DNA of 55,055 nt from an uncultured Magnetovibrio sp. (lineage in GTDB: Bacteria > Pseudomonadota > Alphaproteobacteria > Rhodospirillales > Casp-alpha2), in contig CAZQPC010000001.1 of assembly GCA_964595005.1 (NCBI GenBank), positions 1 through 55,055 on the forward strand, written 5' to 3'. A program made the translations under genes and the position numbers. The notes below the pieces were generated by a model. It was not told the DNA's origin. It searched no databases and worked only from the letters and a program-made list of their open reading frames with translations. Positions within the stretch are counted from its first letter, which is position 1; each line of letters opens with the position of its first letter. Shown here in pieces: positions 12,136 to 55,055 of this stretch.

Positions 12136-13410
12136 TCAGTTCCGCTCAATCCGCCGCTTCAGGCGCAACATTTCCCGGCGCCGGTTGTCTTCAGCGATGA
12201 GGTTTTCCACGAACCGGCCCTGGAACTGCTCAATGCCGACGGATTTACCGAAATCGATGGCTTCGCGGTTGTCGCAACGGATGAGCACAAATTTGTCCGC
12301 GCCCTCTTCGTCGACGACGCGTTTCAAAAGGCTGTGCACCTCTTCGCCGCCGTCGACCAATTCCGGGTCCCAGACCAGTTTGGTCAAGTCGATGCCAAGG
12401 CGTTCGCGGTGGATCATGGTCAGGGTCTCCAGGGTGACGCCGTCCATACACACCCGGTAACCCTTGTCTTGAACAAATTCTCGGGCGAATACGTAGGATG
12501 ACAGGTTGGAGAAGATATCCTCCTTCTGCAGTTCGATGATCATCTGGCCGCGCCGCGACGCCGCAATGTTGTCGTCGAAGGACTGAAACTCCTTCGACAG
12601 CAGGGTCGCGATATTGACGTTGAAACTGATCTCCCCGGAGATCGAAATGCTGTCGGTTTTGGTCAACATGGACAGCATGCGCCGGTCGAGCGTCTCCGTG
12701 AGATGCTGGAACAGCCACCGGTTGGCGGTCAGGTTGACGCCAGGCAACAGCGTTTCGCGCAGATCAGAGATCGAAATGAACAATTCGCTGAAGGTTTGGG
12801 TCGGCACCAGTTTGGAATCGACGGCACAGACAAACTGGCGCCGCGCCAAATTCGAAAGATCGGCCCGGATGAGCGCCGTTTCGACCCTGGCCAGAACATC
12901 CGGGGTCAGCGGCTCACCCTGTTTCTGTTTGGCCTTCAGAGCGGAGCGGGCATCCATGCGCGACCGCACGGCGGCCTGACGCTCCTGTTCCGACTGGGCC
13001 ATGCCCTGGACCAATTGAAGAAAGTTGTCGTAATCGGTGGCCGCATCATACCAGGTGGCGAAATTCTGGGTCTGTATGTCCTCTTCGGCAACCAGCGGAT
13101 CATCGTCGAACAGATACTTGATCTTCTGAACGATGGTTTCCACCCCGGCCTGGGCTTCGCTCTTGAAGATGAAATAGATATCGGAGTTCTTCATGGTGAA
13201 CAGTTGCCCGGTCATATCGGAAACCAGGGCGTCGAAATTACTGGCCGCGGCGCGGATGTGCTGATCACGGCGGTTGAAGGGCCTGAGGGCGGACAGATGC
13301 AAGATGACCACCTTGCGGCCGTCCTTGTGCTTCTCCAGGCGGCGCACATAATCCAACAACAGGTTTTCCTGGCTGGGAAGGCGCTTTTTACCGTCGGAAC
13401 GATCAGCCAT
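12136..13410 (-). CDS. stand-alone degenerate GGDEF-like + degenerate EAL-like protein (function unknown)
   Basis: ATG at 13410. The N-terminal half follows the GGDEF-domain pattern (VVILHLSALRPFNRRDQH...LFTMKNSDIYFIF) with KNSDI in place of GGDEF. The C-terminal half follows the EAL pattern (FSELFISI, ISFNVN, IIELQKED, RVCMDG, QGRF) with several catalytic positions replaced. Confidence 0.65.
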   Translation of the reverse strand: MADRSDGKKRLPSQENLLLDYVRRLEKHKDGRKVVILHLSALRPFNRRDQHIRAAASNFDALVSDMTGQLFTMKNSDIYFIFKSEAQAGVETIVQKIKYLFDDDPLVAEEDIQTQNFATWYDAATDYDNFLQLVQGMAQSEQERQAAVRSRMDARSALKAKQKQGEPLTPDVLARVETALIRADLSNLARRQFVCAVDSKLVPTQTFSELFISISDLRETLLPGVNLTANRWLFQHLTETLDRRMLSMLTKTDSISISGEISFNVNIATLLSKEFQSFDDNIAASRRGQMIIELQKEDIFSNLSSYVFAREFVQDKGYRVCMDGVTLETLTMIHRERLGIDLTKLVWDPELVDGGEEVHSLLKRVVDEEGADKFVLIRCDNREAIDFGKSVGIEQFQGRFVENLIAEDNRRREMLRLKRRIERN

Positions 13411-13411
13411 G

Positions 13412-14680
13412 TTATGCCGTCCCGCCGGTGGAGCGCGGACTGCGGCCGCCACCGATCACTTGCACCAGTTTATCGATGAAGAACCCCTGAAATCGGCTGA
13501 TCCCAAGGCTGAGGCCCCATTTTACGGCTTTTTCCGAATCGACGCGGCCGAGGATCATGGTATCGCGACCGGCCTTCGCGATGACCTCGCGCATCTCCTG
13601 CAAACGGCTTTCCTCCTCATCGCCTGTAAACTCAGGCCCCCAGGAAATCTTGATGAAATCGGAGCGCAGGTCGGCCGGTTCGAAATATTGCAAAGACAAG
13701 GGATTGAGGCCGTCGACAACGACGCGATAGCCGCGTTGTTGCAGGGAATCCCTGGCATAAACATAATTCCTCATGTCGGCGAAAATGTCGATGATCTGAA
13801 ATTCGACGATGACTTTCGACATGTGGCCGTCGACGGCGCGGTGAAAATTCTGAAAATCCCGTGACAGAACCGTCGAAATATTCAGATTGATGCTCAAAGG
13901 CTCGGTAATTTCGGAGAAATCCTCCTCCACGAGCACAGCCAGAACCCGCCGATCGAGGGTCTCCGTCAGATATTGAAACAACCATGGACTGGCAAACAGA
14001 TTGACGTCGGGGGCAACGCGTTCCTTGATATCGGCAATCGACAAAAACAATTCGAAAAACACCAGGTCGCCGCCGCCGCCGGATTTCACCTGAAGACAGG
14101 CCTGGCGCTTGATCATATCGGCGACCCGCATGCCCTGAAGGCTTTTATTAATTTCGCTCAGGTTCGACGGCCCCAGCGGCTCACCCAGTTGTTGTTCTTT
14201 GTCGGCGCGGGCCGTTTCCGCCGCCTGGATTTGTTCGGCTTCCACGGCCAGGTCGGTGATGACCGCGAAAAAGGCGGCAAAATCCTCGGGGTTCGACAGG
14301 TCATACCAAGTTGAGAACGCATCATCGAAGGCGTTCTCATCTAATTCCGTCAGCGGGTCTTCGCTGAACAGGCCCCGTACTTTCTCAACGGCACCATCCA
14401 CGTCGTCGACATCGACGTTGCGGCAGATCAGTGCCAAATCTTTGTTGGTCAGGGAAAAAAGCGTCGCATCATTGTTGTCCACCAAGATGTCGAAGGTCCT
14501 GGCGGCAATCTCGATGAAGTGCCCTTGTTTGTGGTTGGGCCGAAGTTTGGAAAGGTTCAAGTGGACGACGAAATACCCGGCCGCATTGGACTCGATCCGG
14601 TTCAGACGGGTGAGTAGAAGCGATTCCTCCGTGTCGTCGAGGTCGTTGGCACCTGCCGCAGCGTTGCCCCATTCAGCCAT
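13412..14680 (-). CDS. paralogous degenerate GGDEF-like + EAL-like protein (function unknown)
   Basis: Clear paralogue of 12136..13410 (shared LFQ[HY]LTETLDRR, NL/NV, QG[RF]F). TNKDL replaces GGDEF and FELF replaces EAL. The stop lies 1 nt before the downstream ATG. Confidence 0.65.
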   Translation of the reverse strand: MAEWGNAAAGANDLDDTEESLLLTRLNRIESNAAGYFVVHLNLSKLRPNHKQGHFIEIAARTFDILVDNNDATLFSLTNKDLALICRNVDVDDVDGAVEKVRGLFSEDPLTELDENAFDDAFSTWYDLSNPEDFAAFFAVITDLAVEAEQIQAAETARADKEQQLGEPLGPSNLSEINKSLQGMRVADMIKRQACLQVKSGGGGDLVFFELFLSIADIKERVAPDVNLFASPWLFQYLTETLDRRVLAVLVEEDFSEITEPLSINLNISTVLSRDFQNFHRAVDGHMSKVIVEFQIIDIFADMRNYVYARDSLQQRGYRVVVDGLNPLSLQYFEPADLRSDFIKISWGPEFTGDEEESRLQEMREVIAKAGRDTMILGRVDSEKAVKWGLSLGISRFQGFFIDKLVQVIGGGRSPRSTGGTA

Positions 14681-45190: not shown

Positions 45191-46672
45191 TTATTCCAGT
45201 AACGCCAAGGCCTGTTGGCAGCGGTTGAGACAGGGCTGAAGCAAGCCTTCGCGGCGCCGCCCCGCGGCGCCGTCCAAGCTGTAGGCCAAGGCTTTTTCAA
45301 GTCCCTTGACGGCTTGCTTGAGTTGTTGGGCCGCGGCCCGCACATCCTCTGCCCGCAGCAATTGAATGGCGGCCAGCATTTTGCCAATCGCTTCCTCCAG
45401 CTCCGTCCCGACGGTGGGGTCGGAAATGGAATAGGCGGCGCTTTCCGCCAGGTCCGGGCTGGTCAAGGCGGCCAGGGTACAGACATATTCACCTGAAGGG
45501 CCTTCCGGGGGCTCGGCGTTCAAAAACGCCCGCCAGGGGCCATCAACCAATTCTTCCGTTTCATCCAGGTTTGGCGTGCCATAACGGTCAACACGGCTGA
45601 GCAATCGCAACGCCGGGGTTTCCTGAGCGGCCGGAAAGGCGGCCTCGAATGTTTTCAGCAGTCCTGAGAACCGGCCATCTTCGCGCTGCAACGCCTGCCA
45701 AAGATCCTTGACCAGACCGTCACGGCGGTGGCCACGAATGGTCGACCCCGTGCTTGGCCCCGTGTACGACCCTGGGCCGGCCCCCGTTTCCCGGCCTTCG
45801 AAGACGGCACGCAAAGCGGCAACGTTCTCTGGCCGGTCGTCGGGGTGTTGCATCAAACACCAGCTGACGGCATCACGAATATCAGGATCGACGCCGGTGA
45901 TGGGCCGCAGTTCCTCGCCGTCCGCCAAAGCCGGCGCCGGTGTCGGCGGGGTCCCCATGACGAAGTGATAGATCGTCGCCCCGAGCGCGTAAAAATCCGT
46001 CCACGGACCTTGCGCACCGATGTCCGGGTCGTACTGTTCTTGGGGACTGTAGCCGTCAGTGACGATGGATGTAAGCGCCTGGCGCTTTTGAGTAAGAGCA
46101 AATCGGGCGGCGCCGAAGTCAATTAAAATCGGCCGGCCGTTGTTGGTGACGAAGATATTGCCGGGCTTGATGTCGCGATGCAGTAGATCACGGCCATGGG
46201 CTGCTTCAAGGCCATCAAGAATGCCACCCAACAGATCGCGCAAGTCGTCCGCCGCACCGGGGCCGCTTTGATCACGCATTCTGTCTTCCAGTGTCTCGCC
46301 GTCCAGATACGGCATGACCATATAGGCCGTGCCCAGCGCTTCGAAGGTGTCGAGCACGCATACCACATTGGGATGACCATTGGGCGCCCCGGCGGAATCG
46401 CGGAAGCTCATCAAAATCTTTGCCTCAAATTGAAAACGGTCATAGCCGTAGTTGAACAGCTCCACCGATGTCGCGCCGCGGATGGAAATCTCCATGTCGC
46501 CGTCGCGCCGCGCCAACCCGTCGGGCAGGTATTCCTTGATCGCAACCGGCGCCTGCAAGTTCTCATCATCAGCGAGATAGGTGATCCCGAAGCCGCCTTG
46601 CCCAAGCACGGAAACAATCCGGTAGTGGTCCAAAACGTGGCCGGCGGGCAATCGATTTCCGCTGTCCGTCAT
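45191..46672 (-). CDS. Hanks-type Ser/Thr protein kinase with unassigned about 190-aa C-terminal region
   Basis: GQGGFG, VAIKEY, HRDIKPGN and DFG motifs. ATG at 46672 lies 4 nt after the upstream stop; the track start at 46705 is TTG. Confidence 0.87.
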   Translation of the reverse strand: MTDSGNRLPAGHVLDHYRIVSVLGQGGFGITYLADDENLQAPVAIKEYLPDGLARRDGDMEISIRGATSVELFNYGYDRFQFEAKILMSFRDSAGAPNGHPNVVCVLDTFEALGTAYMVMPYLDGETLEDRMRDQSGPGAADDLRDLLGGILDGLEAAHGRDLLHRDIKPGNIFVTNNGRPILIDFGAARFALTQKRQALTSIVTDGYSPQEQYDPDIGAQGPWTDFYALGATIYHFVMGTPPTPAPALADGEELRPITGVDPDIRDAVSWCLMQHPDDRPENVAALRAVFEGRETGAGPGSYTGPSTGSTIRGHRRDGLVKDLWQALQREDGRFSGLLKTFEAAFPAAQETPALRLLSRVDRYGTPNLDETEELVDGPWRAFLNAEPPEGPSGEYVCTLAALTSPDLAESAAYSISDPTVGTELEEAIGKMLAAIQLLRAEDVRAAAQQLKQAVKGLEKALAYSLDGAAGRRREGLLQPCLNRCQQALALLE

Positions 46673-46676
46673 GGGC

Positions 46677-48527
46677 TCACCCGGCGAAGTAGAGGGCGGC
46701 CGCAATCAAGGCCAGGACCGAGATGATCTTCACGGCATCCATCAGCCGGCCGCTGCTTTCCGACGCGGCATAATTTTTCTCACGTTCCATGTCCCGGAAG
46801 ACCATGCCGCCCCAGGCCCGCTCGTCGGTGATATCCGGGTCCCGGTCGGGCCCCGGGCGTGGCGGGGCATTCGCCGTGCCGTCGGCCAGCTGACGTGCCT
46901 CGGCTACCAAGAACTCCGATCCGATCGGCCAACCGGGCCTGAGCGCGTGCAGGGCTTGCCACCCGGCAACCGATTTCCCGGCCCGGCCAAGCTCACGGTC
47001 GGCCAACAACTGACCCAGCATGGCGACCTCCAGTACATGTTGGCGCAGCTGCTTTTGACGTTCTCCGCTCAAACTGCGGAACCGTTTTTTATAGGGTTTG
47101 AGGACGCTGTCAGGATCGGCGATCACCTTGGTAAATATCGAGTTCGCGGCTCTCGGGCAGCCGCGCACCAGATAGGCCGCCCCCGTCATGATGTCGCTGA
47201 CAATGGTGGGCGCCGGTTCGTCGATGATCTCGATCTGCAGGCGGTCGTCGGTGACGTACAGTTCGGCCAGGGCAAGCATCCAAGCGCCGTGGACACTGGT
47301 CGGCGGATCGGAAAGCTTCAGCCGGCGGAGCAATTTATTAAGTGAACCTCGGCTGCCCCATTCAACCGACGAAATAATGTCCAACGGGATGGTCACGACT
47401 TCCGCGCCATAGTCATTGATGACCTTATTCTGGTGGCGGATGGCCGGGCCGTAATCGACGGGCGGACGGAACAGCTCAACGGCAAGCATGGCCGCGGCTT
47501 CCGTGTCGTGCGGATTTTGCTGCCAATGATCGCCCAGCAGTGCGCGGCCGGTGTCAATGTCACCGCCGGCAAGCTGCCGCCAGGCTTCGTCCAAAACGGC
47601 GTGGCCACCACCCGCACCGGGTCCGCCACCGGGGGCCGCGCCGGCCGTCAGGATGGAGCGCCATTGGGCGACGGTCGGCGGCCGCGCCGATGGATCAAGA
47701 GCAAGCCCGCTGGCGATAAACGAAACAAAATTCGGATCAAGCGTGCGGCCGGCAACGTCGGAAAGCGGCTCCAGACGATCATTGAGCAGCCGGCCCGCGG
47801 CGGATTGCGGCGTGCCTGCGCCGGCGGCGTCATAAAGCGTTGCGGCGAGACCGTAAATATCGGTCCAAGGGCCTTGCTTGGACGTGACTGAGTATTGTTC
47901 CGGCGCCGCATAGCCTTCGGAGAATATGGGATAATGGCTCTTGCGCGGATCGCCCAGCGAACGGACCAGGCCGAAATCGGCCAACAACGGCTCACCATTG
48001 TTCGGTATGAAGACGTTGCCCGGCGTAATATCGCGGTGCAGTAAACCTTCATCGTGGACACGTTGAAGCACGTCCAGCAACCGTTCGGTCAAGACCATCA
48101 AGGCATCGGCCTCGAGAGGTCCCGTATAGTTGATCTGGTCCGCCAAAGACTGGCCCTCGACGTAAGGCATGACGATATAGGCGGTTCCACGGGCGGTGAA
48201 ATACCGCAAAACCGGCATCACCCCAAAGGCATCTTCGCCGCGCGTCATTCTGGCCAGGGCGCGCGCTTCCTCAAGAAACCGGTCCAGGCCGTCGGCAAAA
48301 AAAGCCTCGTCGCCGTCGGCCCGCCCCGGTTCCACGTTGCCGTCCTCGCTGCGCTGGGCGAATTGTTGGGGGTAGTATTCCTTGACCACGACGTCGGCAT
48401 CGAGGGTCGTGGCACGGGCCAGATAGTTGACGCCAAACCCGCCCTGGCCAAGTACCTTCTCGATCACCAGGTCTTCGAGATGGCTGCCGGGAGGCAGCGT
48501 TTCTTCAACGACACGGGCCATATTCAT
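46677..48527 (-). CDS. Hanks-type protein kinase paralogue with about 290-aa unassigned region and C-terminal TM anchor
   Basis: GQGGFG, VVVKEY, HRDITPGN (Lys to Thr), DFG and APE motifs. The last 20 residues, KIISVLALIAALYFAG-like, are hydrophobic. Confidence 0.87.
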   Translation of the reverse strand: MNMARVVEETLPPGSHLEDLVIEKVLGQGGFGVNYLARATTLDADVVVKEYYPQQFAQRSEDGNVEPGRADGDEAFFADGLDRFLEEARALARMTRGEDAFGVMPVLRYFTARGTAYIVMPYVEGQSLADQINYTGPLEADALMVLTERLLDVLQRVHDEGLLHRDITPGNVFIPNNGEPLLADFGLVRSLGDPRKSHYPIFSEGYAAPEQYSVTSKQGPWTDIYGLAATLYDAAGAGTPQSAAGRLLNDRLEPLSDVAGRTLDPNFVSFIASGLALDPSARPPTVAQWRSILTAGAAPGGGPGAGGGHAVLDEAWRQLAGGDIDTGRALLGDHWQQNPHDTEAAAMLAVELFRPPVDYGPAIRHQNKVINDYGAEVVTIPLDIISSVEWGSRGSLNKLLRRLKLSDPPTSVHGAWMLALAELYVTDDRLQIEIIDEPAPTIVSDIMTGAAYLVRGCPRAANSIFTKVIADPDSVLKPYKKRFRSLSGERQKQLRQHVLEVAMLGQLLADRELGRAGKSVAGWQALHALRPGWPIGSEFLVAEARQLADGTANAPPRPGPDRDPDITDERAWGGMVFRDMEREKNYAASESSGRLMDAVKIISVLALIAAALYFAG

Positions 48528-49224: not shown

Positions 49225-49764
49225 CTACCAGGCCAGCCAATCCAACGTATCGAAGCTGGACAGGGATTTGATCGTTTCCGGCGGCCCCTCGTTCTCGGGT
49301 CCGAAGTGCTCGACCCGTTCCAGCGACGTGCCGGTCTTTCCCGACGCGATGTCGGCCACCAGGTGACGACCGCCGGGACCGGGGATACGGGGCGTTGACG
49401 TATAGGAGACACGAATGATCTGTAGCCGGCGGTCACTGTCGTTGACGACAACGGTGCCGATGGGGCCGCCTGCGGGTTTCGTTATGCGGGCCCGGCTGCC
49501 ATCACGGAAGGTGTATTCGCCGCCGACGAACTGGCGCACGGTGCGCCAGGTCATGGTGCCGCCCGGTTGTTCGACGACGACGACGTCGAATTTTAACACC
49601 ACCGTCTGCGACGCGCCGAGCGCCAGCGCACCGCTCGGCAGCACGAACCCGAGAATAACCAGCGCGGAGCTTCGCCGCAGCAAGCCGAAGACAATGATTC
49701 CGACACCGGCGGCGCCGCCCGCATAAGTCAGATAATCCCAGATCAACAGGTCTTCGGAGAGCAA
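49225..49764 (-). CDS. hypothetical membrane protein (2 N-terminal TM + beta-rich domain)
   Basis: TTG start at 49764 preceded by GGAGGA with a 7-nt spacer. Hydrophobic GGAAGVGIIVFGLL and ALVILGFVLPSGALALG segments. Confidence 0.55.
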   Translation of the reverse strand: MLSEDLLIWDYLTYAGGAAGVGIIVFGLLRRSSALVILGFVLPSGALALGASQTVVLKFDVVVVEQPGGTMTWRTVRQFVGGEYTFRDGSRARITKPAGGPIGTVVVNDSDRRLQIIRVSYTSTPRIPGPGGRHLVADIASGKTGTSLERVEHFGPENEGPPETIKSLSSFDTLDWLAW

Positions 49765-50031
49765 CGCCTAGTCCTCCGCGTAATCGTCCGCCCCCAGCGC
49801 GGGACGGCCGCATGGCAAACGCAAGCCAATACATTGCTGATTATGCCACATAATTCAGGCCTCGGCGACGCCAGCTGTCGTCGCTGGGCGGTGATTGCGC
49901 TAACGCCTTGGCGATCGGTTTGATATAATATCCCTGCGGTATCGGGTTTTTGCCGGGCGCCGCTGGGCCCGTGACGTGATAGAATTGGCCGATACTAATC
50001 ACCAGGGCATCAAATTTTTGAGAGTGTGAGG

Positions 50032-50544
50032 ATGTCGGACACCATCATTGCCATTGCCTTTGGCATTGCCATTTGGGCGGGGATTATCGTGTTCGTGGTA
50101 CTTGCGGTGCGCCGCCAGTCGCGGGAAATGGACCGGCTGGGTGACGAGGCCGCCAAAGCCGCCGAAGCGGGCGATTGGAAGCCGGCATTGGGCATCGCGG
50201 CCTCTCTTTTATTTTTGATCATCGTCACCGCGCTTAATGAGGAAACCACAGAAGGCGCCATCACTGTTGTCGTCGTTTTCGCGGTGTTCGCCAGTTTCGT
50301 GGGATCGTTGCTGTTCGTGGTGCGCGCGCGCCAACGCGGCGGCGATCGCGTGGCGCTGGCCTTGGCGGTGCTGGCGGGCCTTGTCGGCGTTGGCGGATTG
50401 GCGGTGATTGTGACGATGCACGGCGTCGTCCCGATCGCCATTTTCGGCACCGTTTTCCTGGTGGCTGGCGCGCTCTCGGCGTGGTTCCATAAGATTCGTG
50501 ATCGGCGGCGGCAGGGATCGGACGGATCAGACGGCAAAGAATAA
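50032..50544 (+). CDS. hypothetical polytopic membrane protein
   Basis: Four or five hydrophobic helices and a basic/acidic tail. ATG at 50032; the track start at 50026 is GTG. Confidence 0.55.
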   Translation: MSDTIIAIAFGIAIWAGIIVFVVLAVRRQSREMDRLGDEAAKAAEAGDWKPALGIAASLLFLIIVTALNEETTEGAITVVVVFAVFASFVGSLLFVVRARQRGGDRVALALAVLAGLVGVGGLAVIVTMHGVVPIAIFGTVFLVAGALSAWFHKIRDRRRQGSDGSDGKE

Positions 50545-50554
50545 ACGGCGCCCG

Positions 50555-50998
50555 TTAGGACCGCCTCAGCCAGCTGAACCAGCGCGAGTTCGGCGCCTCG
50601 GTAATCGCCGCGTAGGCGCGGCCTAGTTCTTTCGGGTCCGGGTCGGCGCCGCCCCGGTAGGCGGTGACGAGAAACCCGCGAAGACCGATCGAGGTGACGT
50701 AGTCGATCTGCATGGGGTCATCATCGACCAGGAACTCACCGCCCATGCGGCGGATATCCTTGGGCTGGCCGCCCAGCCCCTGGGGGTCGTAATCCTCGCG
50801 GTAGAGGCGCTCGGCGAAGAATCCATCAAGGCCGTGCAGGGCCAGGATGTCGTTGGCCCGATCGCGGGTCGAATGGGTCCACAGCTTCAACGTCAACCCG
50901 TCGTCCGTCAGGCGGCCAAGCAGGTCCGGAATACCGGGCCGCATTTCGCCGCCGAAGTCGTCGGTCAGGGTATTGTCCATGTCGAAAACGACGATCAT
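50555..50998 (-). CDS. HAD-superfamily hydrolase, FCP1/NIF-like (putative phosphoprotein phosphatase)
   Basis: ATG at 50998 gives MIVVFDMDNTL (DxDxT motif I). The order RPG...LKLWTHSTRDRA...KDIRR...FLVDDDP follows the FCP1/SCP-type small HAD phosphatase layout. Confidence 0.65.
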   Translation of the reverse strand: MIVVFDMDNTLTDDFGGEMRPGIPDLLGRLTDDGLTLKLWTHSTRDRANDILALHGLDGFFAERLYREDYDPQGLGGQPKDIRRMGGEFLVDDDPMQIDYVTSIGLRGFLVTAYRGGADPDPKELGRAYAAITEAPNSRWFSWLRRS

Positions 50999-51020
50999 CG
51001 GGCTCTCCGGGTGGCCGCGT

Positions 51021-51575
51021 TCATAGGATATCGGCAAAATAGCGCTCGAATTCCGGGTAATAGAGGAAGGTTCCCGAATGATGGGCGCGGCGGCCGTCGG
51101 CGGTTTCAATGAGGATTTCACCCGATGAGAAATGGTGGGTAATCAAGTAGCGCATGTGGCGGGCACGCAGGGTTTGGCGGAATTCATGCAGGCGGGTGAA
51201 AAAATCCGGGATCGCGGCCGCCGTATCATCGTTGTCCATATAAACGCCGCCAAAAGGCAGCCTCAGCCAGACCCGGCCGGCCGGCTCCGCATGACAGTAA
51301 TAGTAGGCGTGGGAGTTGACGCCGTGTCCCCACATGCCGACCAACAGATATCCGTTCGGGGCGTCGTCGACGAATTCAGCAACGTCGCCGCCGACCAATG
51401 CCGGCCGTGCCTGGGCGGCGGCGTCGCCGATCAGCAATCCGCCGCCTCTTTCTGGGATAACTTCCGCGACGTCGGCGCCATCGATCATCCAATCGGGGAA
51501 TGGCTGGCCGAAAAGCTCCTCGTACTCTTTCTGGAGACGTTTCACGGTTCGGCGGTTTCGCAATTTCTTGAACAA
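51021..51575 (-). CDS. hypothetical protein (184 aa, no family recognised)
   Basis: TTG start at 51575 with a GGGGA RBS-like element 5 nt upstream. Codon usage is consistent with its neighbours. Confidence 0.55.
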   Translation of the reverse strand: MFKKLRNRRTVKRLQKEYEELFGQPFPDWMIDGADVAEVIPERGGGLLIGDAAAQARPALVGGDVAEFVDDAPNGYLLVGMWGHGVNSHAYYYCHAEPAGRVWLRLPFGGVYMDNDDTAAAIPDFFTRLHEFRQTLRARHMRYLITHHFSSGEILIETADGRRAHHSGTFLYYPEFERYFADIL

Positions 51576-51609
51576 GGCGGTCCCCGCTTCAATCGGTTCG
51601 GTCGGTCGG

Positions 51610-52476
51610 CTATATGCGGCTGAAATAACTTAGCAGGCCGCCCGGCATGTGCGTCCACGACCCGGCCAGATAGCCGCTCACCCAGGCGGCGCCGGTGACC
51701 AGATCTCCCGGGCGCGGATCGAAGCCGTCGGCCAGCGCCTTCGGGGCGGCATAGACGGACAAAATGAGGTCCGGCTCACCATCGACGACCGGCACGTCCA
51801 GGATCAAGATCGGCCGCCCGTCCAGTTCCGCGTGATCGACGCCTTTGACCGTGCCGTAAAACCGCTGCCAATCGGGCTCCACGGTTTCATCCTCTTGCCC
51901 GGGCCGGTCGGGCTGGATCAGGGTAATGTCCGCGCTGACGTCCCAAGCGGCCAAATTTTCGTCGCTTACGGGATCGACCCAGAAGGCGATGGCCGCCAAG
52001 GTGAACTGAGCGGTGGCGCCGATCCGCAGGCGGCTCTTGTCCTTGTAGAAAATGGGATCACAAAAAGTCAGCTCGGCACCTTGGTAGTCGGCGGTGATGA
52101 TCGCCCCGGCACCGTCCGCCAAGGGCGTCACCGAGCGAATTTCCAAGGGCACCCGCGAACCGGCGACGGCGAAGGGAAAGGCGCTCGCCAATTGGCGCTG
52201 ACCGTTGTCGTCGGTGGATTGCAGGACGACGCATTGCAGGGGCGTGCGGCCGCTGGAGCGCACCATGAACGGTGGCGGCTCACCCAACGGCAGGCGCGGC
52301 CCCGCATTGTCCGACCGGGCCCAGATTTCCGCCTCGGGATCGACATCCAGGGCGCTCTTGGGGATCGGCTCAATAACCTCATCACCATCCGCCCGCGTGG
52401 CGTCGATCAAGGCGGCCGCCTGGTCGCCGTCGTCGACGATGGCCAGCCAGTGGATGGACGTGCGTTGATCCAGCAT
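51610..52476 (-). CDS. hypothetical protein (288 aa, no family recognised)
   Basis: ATG confirmed at 52476. Same strand and short spacing to flanking genes. Confidence 0.6.
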   Translation of the reverse strand: MLDQRTSIHWLAIVDDGDQAAALIDATRADGDEVIEPIPKSALDVDPEAEIWARSDNAGPRLPLGEPPPFMVRSSGRTPLQCVVLQSTDDNGQRQLASAFPFAVAGSRVPLEIRSVTPLADGAGAIITADYQGAELTFCDPIFYKDKSRLRIGATAQFTLAAIAFWVDPVSDENLAAWDVSADITLIQPDRPGQEDETVEPDWQRFYGTVKGVDHAELDGRPILILDVPVVDGEPDLILSVYAAPKALADGFDPRPGDLVTGAAWVSGYLAGSWTHMPGGLLSYFSRI

Positions 52477-52526
52477 GTTCCAACCCTATCTCAATTCGCA
52501 GGGTCCATAAACCGGCGGCGTGATGG

Positions 52527-53321
52527 TTAAAGACCCAACAGGCGGCGCAGGCCGGTCTTTACGTAGCGCCGGCGGAACCGGGCGACAACGTCGCGGAGAT
52601 CGTCATCCAGGTAGGTCATGGCCTTCTTGGCAATCCGTCCGGGCAGGCCGAACCGCGCCTCCGCGACGGCGCCGGCGATACAGGCCTGGGTATCCGCATC
52701 ACCGCCCAGGGAAACCGCCATGCGCACCGCGTGCTCATAGGATTTCGCCTCAATGGCGCAGCGCAGCGCCTGTGGCACCGAGCCCTGGCTGGTGACGTCG
52801 TAGCGGTAGGTCTTCCGGATATCGTCGACGCGGGTTTCCAAATCATAGCCGAAGGCGGTGTTGACGGCGGTGCCGATTTCCTTCGGTTTCGCCCCTTGTC
52901 GGGCCAGCCAAGCGGCCAGGGCCGTGGCTTTGGCGCCCTTGATCCCCTCGCGGTGATTGTGGGTGACATCGGCGGTCGCGGCGGCCAGCCGCAGAACCTC
53001 GTCTTCGGATTCCGCGATCCATGCGACCGGTGAGACGCGCATGGCCGAGCCGTTGCCATAGCTGTTGTAGGGCCCGGCACCGTCGGCCGCCACCCAGCCC
53101 TTGAACATGCCGCCATAGCCGGCGTCGGGATAGCGCCGCGCGTAGGTCCGGAAACGTTCGGCAAAATTCCGCTCACCCATCAGGGCATCGGCGACAGCAA
53201 TCGTCAGGACACTGTCGTCGGTAAACTCACAGTCTTTTCCGAACAGCGGAAAATCCGTCGTCTTGATGGACCGGTATTCGTAGATCGACCCGATAATGTC
53301 GCCGGCAATGGCCCCCAGCAT
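52527..53321 (-). CDS. ADP-ribosylglycohydrolase (ARH/DraG) family protein
   Basis: N-terminal MLGAIAGDIIGS, FTDDSVLT (metal-binding Asp/Thr) and C-terminal SLGGDADTQACIAGA, as in ARH-fold enzymes. Confidence 0.87.
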   Translation of the reverse strand: MLGAIAGDIIGSIYEYRSIKTTDFPLFGKDCEFTDDSVLTIAVADALMGERNFAERFRTYARRYPDAGYGGMFKGWVAADGAGPYNSYGNGSAMRVSPVAWIAESEDEVLRLAAATADVTHNHREGIKGAKATALAAWLARQGAKPKEIGTAVNTAFGYDLETRVDDIRKTYRYDVTSQGSVPQALRCAIEAKSYEHAVRMAVSLGGDADTQACIAGAVAEARFGLPGRIAKKAMTYLDDDLRDVVARFRRRYVKTGLRRLLGL

Positions 53322-53342
53322 ACTCTCACCCCGCCGCCGCCA

Positions 53343-54299
53343 TTAGCGTGCCGCCCCGCCGTCATCATCAGCGTCAAGCTCGGCCAGCAAGTCGTCCAAC
53401 TCATCATCGTCAATGACCGCCACCTCGGCGCCCAGATGAATAGCGCCGGCCCGCCGCAGCCGGCGGATGGCGAAATTGACCCGGCGCCTGGCCGCCGCCA
53501 CCTCGGCCGGCGGCGTGTCACCGGCCAACTCAATATCTTCGCCAACCATTTCCGACAAGCGCCGGGCCATCGCCCGCAGCACCCGTTGGACGACCGCCTC
53601 GGGTTGCCCGGAAAGGGCGGCCACCAAGTCCGACATCTCGACCTCGCGCAGCAGCCGGCGGATCGAATCGTCGTCGGTGTGAAGCAAGTCCGAAATGTCG
53701 AGCAACTGTTCTTCCACGGCGTCGGGGAGGTTCAGATTGAAATCGGGGGTTTCGGCGCGCAGGGCCGCAAGTTTTTCGGACCAATCTTCCGGCGCCGTCG
53801 TCGTGGCGATCAATTCAGTAATCAGATGCTGACGCTCGTCGGGCCGGAAGGTCTGGTCGAGGTGTTGGTGCAGGGCATCCACCAAAGGTGTTATGCGGGC
53901 CAGATGGAAACCGTCCATGGACAGCAGTTCGGCGGTGGCGCCGGTGAGCGCGTCGGGCATGGCCCGGTCAAGTTCCGCCAACCGGTCGGCCTCCAGGGCC
54001 CAGCAGACGGCGGCCAATTCATGGTTGAAATCACTGCCGTCCGCGAGACGCCGCCGGTCGTTGAGAAAATCCGCCAACGCCGCCATCGGCAGACGGTGCA
54101 GCATGTCGCGCAAGTCCATCAGTTCGCGGCGCACGGAAAACGTCTGATCGGCGCGTTCGGCGGCATCGCGCCGGTTCGTTTCGCGTTCTTCGTCCAGCCA
54201 GTCAAGGATACGGGTGAGCGAGTGATCGATGCTTTCGACCGCTGCGGTCAGCGCGTCCAGGCGGGCCGTATGCTCTAGCTGTTTTCGGCGACCACTCAT
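53343..54299 (-). CDS. coiled-coil protein with FliG C-terminal-like domain and acidic tail
   Basis: LLREVEMSDLVAALSGQPEAVVQRVLRAMARRLSEMVGEDIELAGDTPPAEVAAARRRVNFAIRRLRRAGAI follows the FliG_C (MgtE_N-related) pattern position by position. GAGGTG RBS. Confidence 0.62.
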   Translation of the reverse strand: MSGRRKQLEHTARLDALTAAVESIDHSLTRILDWLDEERETNRRDAAERADQTFSVRRELMDLRDMLHRLPMAALADFLNDRRRLADGSDFNHELAAVCWALEADRLAELDRAMPDALTGATAELLSMDGFHLARITPLVDALHQHLDQTFRPDERQHLITELIATTTAPEDWSEKLAALRAETPDFNLNLPDAVEEQLLDISDLLHTDDDSIRRLLREVEMSDLVAALSGQPEAVVQRVLRAMARRLSEMVGEDIELAGDTPPAEVAAARRRVNFAIRRLRRAGAIHLGAEVAVIDDDELDDLLAELDADDDGGAAR

Positions 54300-54469
54300 T
54301 TCACCTCACGTGCCGAAGGTCTGCCGACCTCGGCTGTCAATACGATGGTGACAGGGTAAAGGTGATCGCCGTCCAAAAACCAGGTTTTCATGCCGCCAAC
54401 CGGTAACCACATTCCGAGATTGGATCGGAACATCTTCTTCAATTGCCGCCGACACAACCGGAAAACAGG

Positions 54470-55015
54470 TCATTCCGTCCGCCTCATGGGGCCGCGCGGC
54501 CGGCCGGCAAACCACAGGAAGATAATGAACAGAACCAATAAGGGGCCCATATAGGCGGCCGTCGTCGCAAGGGAGGCGGGCCCGGGTTTCGCGGTGACCG
54601 TTCGGGCGGCGGGCGGCGTCACGGCGCCACTTGGTTTCGCCACAAGGGGTTTCACCGCAGGTTGGGGTGTTGGCAAGGCCTTTGGCTTTGCCACCGGTTT
54701 CATCGCCGGCGTTGAACGGACTGCGGGCCGGGGCGCGGCGATCACCGGACGCGGCGGCGGTAGGACGGCGGGCATATAGGCCGCGCCGCCGTGGCGGCTG
54801 GTATCGAGGCTAGGTAAGGGGACCGCTCCGCCGTAGGCGCGTCCCGCCGACGCATGCATCAACGCCGCCGGCCGCGGACCGGGCCCGCCGATCGCACCGG
54901 CACCGGCCGGCCGCGGCCACGCCCAGCCCTGCGGCAGATTGGTTGGCACCGGGGCACTGGTCAGCGGTTGGCTGACGGGCCGGGCCAATTCCGTGTCCGT
55001 GACGACTAATACCAA
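54470..55015 (-). CDS. proline-rich protein with C-terminal TM anchor (hypothetical)
   Basis: TTG start only. A Pro/Ala-rich region with PAVKP/PVAKPK-type repeats is followed by GPLLVLFIIFLWFAG. Low-complexity sequence, so the coding status is less certain. Confidence 0.4.
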   Translation of the reverse strand: MVLVVTDTELARPVSQPLTSAPVPTNLPQGWAWPRPAGAGAIGGPGPRPAALMHASAGRAYGGAVPLPSLDTSRHGGAAYMPAVLPPPRPVIAAPRPAVRSTPAMKPVAKPKALPTPQPAVKPLVAKPSGAVTPPAARTVTAKPGPASLATTAAYMGPLLVLFIIFLWFAGRPRGPMRRTE

Positions 55016-55055
55016 GTTGCACTAATAATGACCCATAGAGACGGTTTTCCAGGGT

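Follow-up and report, generated by a model that had tools for sequence, protein, structure and literature searches.

We analysed a stretch of 55,055 nucleotides from an uncultured Magnetovibrio sp. (contig CAZQPC010000001.1, positions 1 to 55,055), hereafter called the window, in which an earlier note had pointed out a block of five same-strand genes, here named g1 to g5. The list of open reading frames (ORFs) confirmed this observation, with all five genes on the minus strand and their coordinates unchanged. The first gene, g1 (53343..54299), encodes 318 aa: a coiled-coil or helical region at the N-terminus (residues ~1-190) precedes a FliG_C-like domain of six helices (191-289), and the tail is acidic. 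It is followed by g2 (52527..53321), whose product of 264 aa is a short-form ADP-ribosylglycohydrolase (ARH fold) with intact metal-binding motifs. The next two genes belong to uncurated families: g3 (51610..52476; 288 aa), in which a small alpha/beta N-domain and tandem OB-like beta-barrels are predicted, and g4 (51021..51575; 184 aa), from a small uncharacterised family, which begins with TTG at the position where its orthologue has ATG. The last one, g5 (50555..50998), encodes a predicted capless (class III) HAD phosphatase of 147 aa, counted from its ATG. A longer GTG ORF of g5 extends to 51121 and into g4; the public gene calls do not adopt it and give the same boundaries for all five genes on identical contigs.

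Regarding the gene structure, the gaps between the genes are 21, 50, 34 and 22 nt, exactly as had been claimed, and a GA-rich Shine-Dalgarno-like motif stands before all five starts, so that a plausible ribosome-binding site can be assigned to each gene. The GC content at third codon positions (GC3) of g1-g5 is 0.76-0.81, which is typical of the genuine genes in the window, the GC content at the block does not deviate from that of the window, and both values match the host chromosome. Directly after the g5 stop a consensus scan marked a weak terminator-like hairpin with a T-rich tail (50544..50556, minus strand), which is a pattern match only. Upstream of g1 the promoter scan gave no sigma-70 consensus match and the repeat scan no meaningful repeats. 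From this layout we infer that g1-g5 are probably one transcription unit.

In order to know how widely the genes occur, we ran word-indexed searches of a collection of 5.8 billion proteins with g1, g3 and g4. Besides the window cluster, g1 and g3 had one further cluster each and g4 had two, one of these g4 relatives being on a 1.1-kb contig; g1 is thus represented by only two protein clusters in the whole collection. A second lineage, represented by an 846-kb contig from a metagenome (L003; L004 is a second copy of it), carries g1-g5 in the same order, with the same lengths (318, 264, 288, 184 and 147 aa) and with gaps of 21, 58, 37 and 22 nt. The amino acid identities between the window and L003 are 57% for g1, 78% for g2, 65% for g3, 73% for g4 and 88% for g5, and the respective dN/dS values are 0.25, 0.13, 0.19, 0.19 and 0.09. 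Since these values lie between 0.09 and 0.25, the alignments are gap-free and dS is ~0.9-1.3, all five genes are under purifying selection.

The translated comparison of the whole window showed that the collinear block extends only over window 55009-49225 and L003 7436-13165, and that everything outside it differs. Apart from g1-g5, the block contains the tail of a vWA gene on the upstream side and two genes on the other. One of the latter is a convergent gene for a polytopic membrane protein of 172 aa (50026..50544, plus strand), 47% identical to a 162-aa protein of L003 and with a weak YwiC-like match. The other, the last gene of the block, encodes a two-transmembrane (TM) protein of 179 aa (49225..49764, minus strand), 72% identical to the product of L003 12626-13162 and without a family match. 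The earlier note had asked whether the five genes stay syntenic across genomes, and in the sole other full lineage order, lengths and a near-identical spacing are kept between unrelated flanks. The five genes are real and are kept together by selection as one conserved unit.

In a third lineage (L005/L057), a g3 homologue with a frameshift is followed by a g4 homologue, with no HAD gene after them, and this pair has fragments of an IS5-family transposase (...FNKLKHFRAVATRCDKR...) immediately downstream (L005 1013-1114, L057 1499-2047). The combination of all five genes is thus confined to a very narrow clade, although g2, g3 and g4 belong to wider families.

It has to be considered at this point whether the five genes are just unrelated or partly related neighbours, for instance with g3 and g4 alone cooperating, in a block inherited by two related lineages, where the presence of two modification-removing enzymes would be coincidental. 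With two full instances only, shared ancestry is inseparable from functional constraint; furthermore, g2, g3 and g4 each have relatives in entirely different contexts, and g3-g4 is the sole pair that is found together a third time. Nevertheless, the order of unrelated neighbours usually decays at a dS of ~1 or more, and here all the surroundings have changed into completely different flanks, whereas the 5.8-kb block has remained collinear, its intergenic lengths of 21-58 nt are conserved and all five genes are under purifying selection. We regard this explanation as unlikely.

In L003 the five genes are not alone. They are the last five, that is the 3' half, of ten co-directional genes separated by gaps of 21-118 nt. 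The array begins with a vWA protein (gene 1), followed by a Pkinase-SH3_3-FGE-sulfatase protein of 736 aa (gene 2), a Pkinase-Sel1 protein of 763 aa (gene 3), a VIT-vWA protein of 743 aa with a signal peptide (gene 4) and a 91-aa protein (RYGGAYEKGAWAAFP...) without any family match (gene 5); both kinases are of the receptor type. The block had been presented as a five-gene operon; it makes up the 3' part of a longer array in the relative and is probably not a self-contained system.

The window keeps traces of the missing part of this array. The ORF directly upstream of g1 lies 170 nt away, as had been noted, and the gap had been proposed to hold the promoter. The distance is right, but the gap is not empty, as it holds the remnant of a gene. 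This remnant is a 31-codon ORF (54296..54391, minus strand; translation MKTWFLDGDHLYPVTIVLTAEVGRPSAREVK followed by the stop), whose TGA overlaps the ATG of g1 (ATGA). A tblastn search with the L003 91-aa protein, which is intact in the relative (L003 7844-8119), matched residues 1-19 here with 63% identity (E 7e-4): positions 54391-54335 encode these first 19 residues and then the frame diverges. The truncation marks a deletion of ~230 nt. Further upstream, a proline-rich ORF with a C-terminal TM segment (54470..55015, minus strand) is the truncated tail of the VIT-vWA gene, homologous to the C-terminus of the L003 protein, since its N-terminus is 49% identical over 77 aa to VIT-vWA residues 623-699 (L003 7436-7666, in frame). 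This ORF is cut by an in-frame TAG at 55022-55024, and the sequence further upstream is not vWA-like. Therefore, because the VIT-vWA and 91-aa genes are kept there as remnants only, the supposed promoter gap is a deletion scar. Besides, two contigs, that of the window and the independent L001, both stop within ~100 nt upstream of this ORF, and a repeat or insertion sequence element at the boundary would fit these contig ends.

The two Hanks-type Ser/Thr kinases that had been placed about 2 kb from the block are indeed there, and they keep the VAIK-like, HRD and DFG motifs. One of them has 616 aa and a C-terminal TM anchor (46677..48527, minus strand; Pkinase 1.5e-23) and is 38% identical to both L003 kinases in the kinase domain only. 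The other has 504 aa (45191..46705, minus strand; Pkinase 2.8e-28), with 43-45% identity to the L003 kinases, again restricted to the kinase domain. Their genes overlap by 29 nt. Both window kinases have 'KEY(L/Y)P' after the catalytic Lys, and their C-terminal halves have no family match. The proposed link between the five genes and the neighbouring kinases is thus partly upheld: Hanks kinases are adjacent to the block in both lineages, despite a rearrangement, but the correspondence is one of family and the kinases may not be orthologous.

Among the enzymes of the block, g5 had been described as a DxDxT phosphatase of the FCP1/NIF type. The HAD motifs are present (DMDNT, WTHS, PK and VDDDP), and the 147 aa leave no room for a cap domain, but the assignment to a family is marginal. 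The scores were 22.1 bits against a cut-off of 21.8 for Pfam NIF (PF03031) and 23.4 bits against 20.4 for Pfam DUF705, and g5 fell below the cut-offs of TIGR01684 and of TIGR01681 (HAD-IIIC; 23.4 vs 35.75). Its sole match in the PDB was baculovirus 38K. With the FCP1/SCP (NIF) enzymes and 38K it has in common the DxDxT nucleophile, the capless minimal core and the (V/I)DDxP motif IV; it differs from FCP1/SCP in standing just at the gathering threshold and in having, with its 147 aa, neither the insertion specific to FCP1 nor a BRCT domain. The substrates of HAD enzymes without a cap are generally macromolecules.

The assignment of g2 is much firmer, since residues 1-226 match Pfam ADP_ribosyl_GH (PF03747) with 116.6 bits against a cut-off of 26.2 (2.2e-33). 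The ARH motifs had been reported as intact, and they are: GDIIGSIYE, FTDDS and GGDADT align with ARH3 and the Thermus ARH, so that the residues expected to bind the two metal ions (GD..G..E, (S/T)DD and GGD.DT) all appear to be in place. Both PDB 2cwc and ARH3 match at ~1e-13, and PHROGs gives phrog_6572 (2.3e-50). However, g2 stays below the equivalog models of DraG (TIGR02662; 42.6 vs 337 bits) and Tri1 (NF041672; 29.3 vs 490 bits). Compared with the DraT/DraG and Tre1/Tri1 pairs, g2 shares the ARH fold and the conserved di-metal binding residues, but it is short (264 aa), has no transferase partner in the locus and stands in neither a nitrogenase nor a type VI secretion system (T6SS) context. 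Indeed, Pfam, NCBIfam and PADLOC showed no ADP-ribosyltransferase (ART) domain in the ORFs from 44.5 to 55 kb of the window or in the L003 locus, although a highly divergent ART could escape sequence searches. We considered a divergent ART among g3, g4 and the proteins p179, p181 and p197 and found no sequence evidence for one.

Short ARHs of the g2 type are common on mobile elements: relatives with 40-50% identity were found on phages of Bacteroides and Porphyromonas as well as on plasmids. In one case, on a plasmid of Bosea sp. RAC05 (L062), the gene adjoins DUF262, WGR and LPD1 genes; in another, on the Methylomonas koyamae plasmid pFW12EY (L063), it adjoins the BREX genes BrxA/BrxB; and in a Porphyromonas phage (L064) it lies in the lysogeny/early region. 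These settings suggest a conflict-related role for the g2-type subfamily on mobile elements.

As for g1, its residues 191-289 match Pfam FliG_C (1.3e-20) and solved FliG C-domains of the PDB match at ~1e-10. Nevertheless, g1 does not qualify as a FliG. It fails the FliG equivalog TIGR00207 (54 bits vs a cut-off of 226.7) and has no Pfam match to FliG_N or FliG_M, whereas a genuine FliG (P0005) has FliG_N, FliG_M and FliG_C. Its first 190 residues gave only noise of the coiled-coil type. What it shares with FliG is the C-terminal ~100 residues, that is the six-helix FliG_C domain, including the charges of the torque helix: R247 and E254/D255 align with those of FliG, and 'MARRLSEMVGEDIE' aligns with 'MSKRAA..L.DDLE', the Arg and the acidic pair being retained. 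FliG_N, FliG_M, the MFXF motif and the Gly-Gly hinge are absent; the N-terminus is instead a coiled coil and the tail is acidic, and no flagellar gene lies around it in the window. The earlier suggestion that both erasers, g2 and g5, act on g1 as a substrate or scaffold is purely conjectural.

The remaining two proteins had been called orphans. It is true that neither g3 nor g4 has a match in Pfam, NCBIfam, PHROGs or PADLOC, but neither is a true singleton, as both belong to families. A g3 profile, run exhaustively with HMMER, gave 179 representative clusters at E <=1e-3, 20 of them at E <=1e-10, the ~180 clusters of the family being counted at 50% identity. Most members have 250-290 aa, and the family motifs are GHGxHW, SAYP, FFDPLY, LAAxAY, PDD and GxLWLQGYL. 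Some g3-family domains are duplicated or fused within long multidomain proteins. A Pfam scan of 31 members found no family domain, the sole significant partner being Sel1 repeats fused to P0009, and 10 multidomain relatives, scanned likewise, gave nothing but a TPR repeat. Sel1 repeats recur elsewhere, too: besides the fusion to the g3-like domain in P0009 (L007), the kinase-Sel1 gene adjoins the cluster in the relative (L003 3160-5451), and a TM-Sel1 protein is encoded directly after a g4-family gene (L051 818-2047).

From an alignment of 92 sequences, AlphaFold2 modelled g3 confidently (pLDDT 86, pTM 0.86), predicting the small alpha/beta N-domain and then the tandem beta-barrels; an alignment of 2 sequences had given a pLDDT of only 35. 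We also considered g3 as an OB-fold homologue and did not retain this, since Foldseek searches of the PDB and BFVD returned only weak matches, to ModE Di-Mop (the best, TM ~0.3), Rpb8 and LEF-3. The scan of the genome collection gave nothing with the alignment of close g3 relatives, and with the alignment of the subfamily it gave 41 loci (L008-L048), mainly from Micropepsaceae and other alphaproteobacterial metagenome-assembled genomes. In these genomes the g3-family gene stands as a single gene at a conserved position (e.g. L029 9956-10756 and L039 9953-10753), with an FAD-dependent oxidoreductase on one side and an unannotated protein of ~250 aa on the other; PhoH-like and PAP2 genes lie further downstream. 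In the Micropepsaceae it sits alone among such housekeeping genes, and CysE is also among the neighbours. These neighbours gave no functional lead. The N-terminal GHGxHW motif is conserved in this uncurated and fairly widespread family, but the g3 of the window does not have it.

The family of g4 is smaller. Its motifs are GYxLxGxWGHGVNSxAxxY and RLPFGGxYMDN, and its homologues are P0007 (73% identity), P0008 (48%) and six metagenomic relatives at 30-35%. A profile search against the PDB found no match, and the viral scan found nothing for g4.

We also weighed the second option of the earlier note, namely that the block is a stack of immunity or counter-defence genes. Here g2 would reverse a toxic ADP-ribosylation, like Tri1 and the ARHs of phages and plasmids, g5 would reverse a phosphorylation, g1, g3 and g4 would act against other effectors, and all the writing enzymes would come from competitors, phages or defence systems. 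It would fit that g1-g5 contain no ART or kinase domain by Pfam, as had been observed before, that the relatives of g2 lie near DUF262/WGR/LPD1 or BrxA/BrxB and include phrog_6572, that the cluster is extremely rare and patchy, with IS5 transposase fragments adjoining the g3-g4 pair of the third lineage, and that domains of the g3 family are sometimes duplicated or fused in long proteins. It would also fit the general look of polymorphic-toxin immunity arrays, as these five proteins are small, cytoplasmic, mostly uncharacterised, encoded on one strand and include an ARH, which is the enzyme type of Tri1.

However, the surroundings speak otherwise. The rest of the window is ordinary chromosome, with CobN, asparagine synthase (AsnB), an HldE-like protein, a class A penicillin-binding protein, TRAP transporters, a sulfatase, an IclR regulator and an FAD monooxygenase, and in its 55 kb we found no flagellar, secretion, toxin, integrase or defence genes, nor any tRNA or Rfam element. 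Likewise, the 20-kb locus of the relative has ordinary metabolic neighbours and no toxin, Rhs, contact-dependent inhibition (CDI), T6SS, type VII secretion system (T7SS), integrase or defence gene. PADLOC-DB 2.0 gave no match for g1-g5, the membrane proteins, the L003 vWA proteins or the 91-aa protein, and the Tri1 equivalog was far from reached (29 vs 490 bits). Unlike typical immunity islands, which are variable, the block has kept its content and order strictly across ~35% protein divergence. Its GC and GC3 are those of the host chromosome, 72,556 plasmids gave no match for g1, g3, g4 or g5, and in Micropepsaceae the g3-family gene is single-copy and lies within a housekeeping neighbourhood that is itself conserved. 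Compared with polymorphic-toxin arrays, an adjacent toxin or secretion gene is missing, the order is conserved, and the location is chromosomal, with metabolic context and matching base composition. This option has thus no positive evidence in the locus, whether toxin, secretion genes or variable content, and we consider that it is probably not what the block is.

The ten-gene array suggests a comparison with another known type of system. According to PMC11090510, which summarises Anantharaman et al. 2012, the TerY-P triad consists of a TerY-like vWA protein, a PP2C phosphatase and a Ser/Thr kinase; the same source, citing Gao et al. 2020, mentions reports of TerY-P-like modules as stand-alone defence. 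The L003 array resembles it in joining vWA proteins, Hanks kinases and a phosphatase in one co-directional cluster. There are two Ser/Thr kinases per lineage, which are co-directional with the block in L003 and 2 kb off in the window, and by analogy the logic would be that of a phosphorylation switch with a dedicated eraser. The differences are nevertheless considerable. The phosphatase is a capless HAD (NIF/38K-like), and neither the window locus nor L003 has a PP2C domain. The vWA proteins of L003 are of the VIT-vWA/VWA_4 type without a PADLOC model match, and only a remnant of one is left in the window. The kinases carry an SH3-FGE-sulfatase part, Sel1 repeats or a TM tail and not a zinc ribbon or OB fold, and four further conserved genes (the FliG_C-like protein, the ARH, g3 and g4) have no counterpart in the triad. 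Because there is no PADLOC vWA match, no PP2C and four extra conserved genes, the g1-g5 cassette does not belong to the TerY-P family.

A related idea is that the whole array makes up a full TerY-P-type system against phages or for abortive infection, in which the vWA proteins and kinases would sense infection, g3 or g4 would be an unrecognised effector and the erasers would hold the system in its off-state. Modules of a vWA protein, a Ser/Thr kinase and a phosphatase are known, and PMC11090510 mentions their stand-alone defence; the distribution is rare and patchy, and the kinase catalytic domains match the PD-T4-6 and mad6 kinase models of PADLOC strongly. These matches are generic, however, as they concern the catalytic domain common to all Hanks kinases. 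Moreover, the L003 vWA proteins have no PADLOC match, the phosphatase is a HAD and not a PP2C, there is no defence-island context, and Pfam, PADLOC, NCBIfam and PHROGs recognised no effector domain (nuclease, TIR, Sir2 or pore-former). We find such a defence system distinctly improbable.

Our searches of PADLOC, Pfam, NCBIfam, PHROGs and the literature agree with the statement that no described system has this composition; the literature on FliG with ARH, on non-flagellar FliG-like proteins and on vWA/kinase/ARH combinations gave no description of the g1-g5 set. The reading that we tentatively favour, as a possible one still short of being probable, is that g1-g5 are the cytoplasmic half, serving for 'reset/output', of a lineage-restricted signalling cassette with kinases and vWA proteins, in which the phosphatase and the ARH would reset modifications. 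The fuller form of the cassette would be that of L003, with the vWA protein, the kinase-SH3-FGE and kinase-Sel1 proteins, the secreted VIT-vWA protein, the 91-aa protein and g1-g5. The Hanks kinases would phosphorylate one or more proteins of the cassette, among which g1 is the likeliest scaffold or target. The phosphates placed by the kinases would be stripped by the capless HAD g5, in the role that PP2C has in TerY-P triads and in bacterial Hanks systems of the ordinary kind. As for g2, this ARH would hydrolyse an ADP-ribosyl linkage on a protein or small molecule, the transferase that writes it being encoded outside the locus; its substrate may be one of the cell's own, or the modification may come from outside. 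Lastly, g3, with its putative tandem OB-like barrels, and g4 might be binding or adaptor subunits. Its role may be in physiological signalling or in conflict and defence.

Several findings weigh against this interpretation. To begin with the enzymes, no ADP-ribosyltransferase was found and the family of g5 is marginally assigned. The kinases of the two lineages share the catalytic domain alone (38-45% identity), differ in their C-terminal domains and are found at opposite ends of the cluster; in the window they are separate transcription units, with oppositely oriented genes between them and g1-g5. Furthermore, g1-g5 are intact in the window although the VIT-vWA and 91-aa genes have been reduced to remnants, and for this reason g1-g5 cannot depend strictly on those two genes. 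The evidence from synteny is also thin, with the full set in two lineages only plus a decayed g3-g4 fragment. Finally, none of the 41 g3-family loci has a homologue of g1, g2, g4, g5 or the kinases within 10 kb, and the six distant g4 relatives, which come from short contigs of a metagenome scan, have no linked partner genes.

We also considered the block as a so far undescribed bacterial module for signalling or conflict, in which a non-flagellar FliG_C protein would be switched by two orthogonal reversible modifications, a Ser/Thr phosphorylation set by dedicated receptor-type Hanks kinases and removed by the FCP1-like HAD enzyme and an ADP-ribosylation erased by the ARH, with g3, of a new tandem-OB family, and g4, of a new small one, as its partners. 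The torque-helix charges kept in g1 might then allow its FliG_C domain to contact a stator of the MotA/ExbB type or some other partner in the membrane. This seems to us very unlikely.

If the signalling cassette that we favour is real, it would be a Hanks-kinase cassette with a capless HAD phosphatase of the eukaryote- or virus-like kind where bacteria normally use PP2C, it would couple phospho-signalling to the removal of ADP-ribosyl groups, and it would be a rare use of the FliG C-domain outside the flagellum. Its practical weight is limited, as the full cluster is known from two uncultured lineages only and the activities are predicted. In any case, two uncurated families come out of the analysis, that of g3, with ~180 clusters and a confident tandem beta-barrel model, and the small one of g4.

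Elsewhere in the window, a 422-aa protein (13412-14680, minus strand) has a weak EAL-domain match below the gathering score. It adjoins a 438-aa protein without a family match (12136-13452, minus strand), and both are encoded in a stretch of lower GC content (0.54-0.58).

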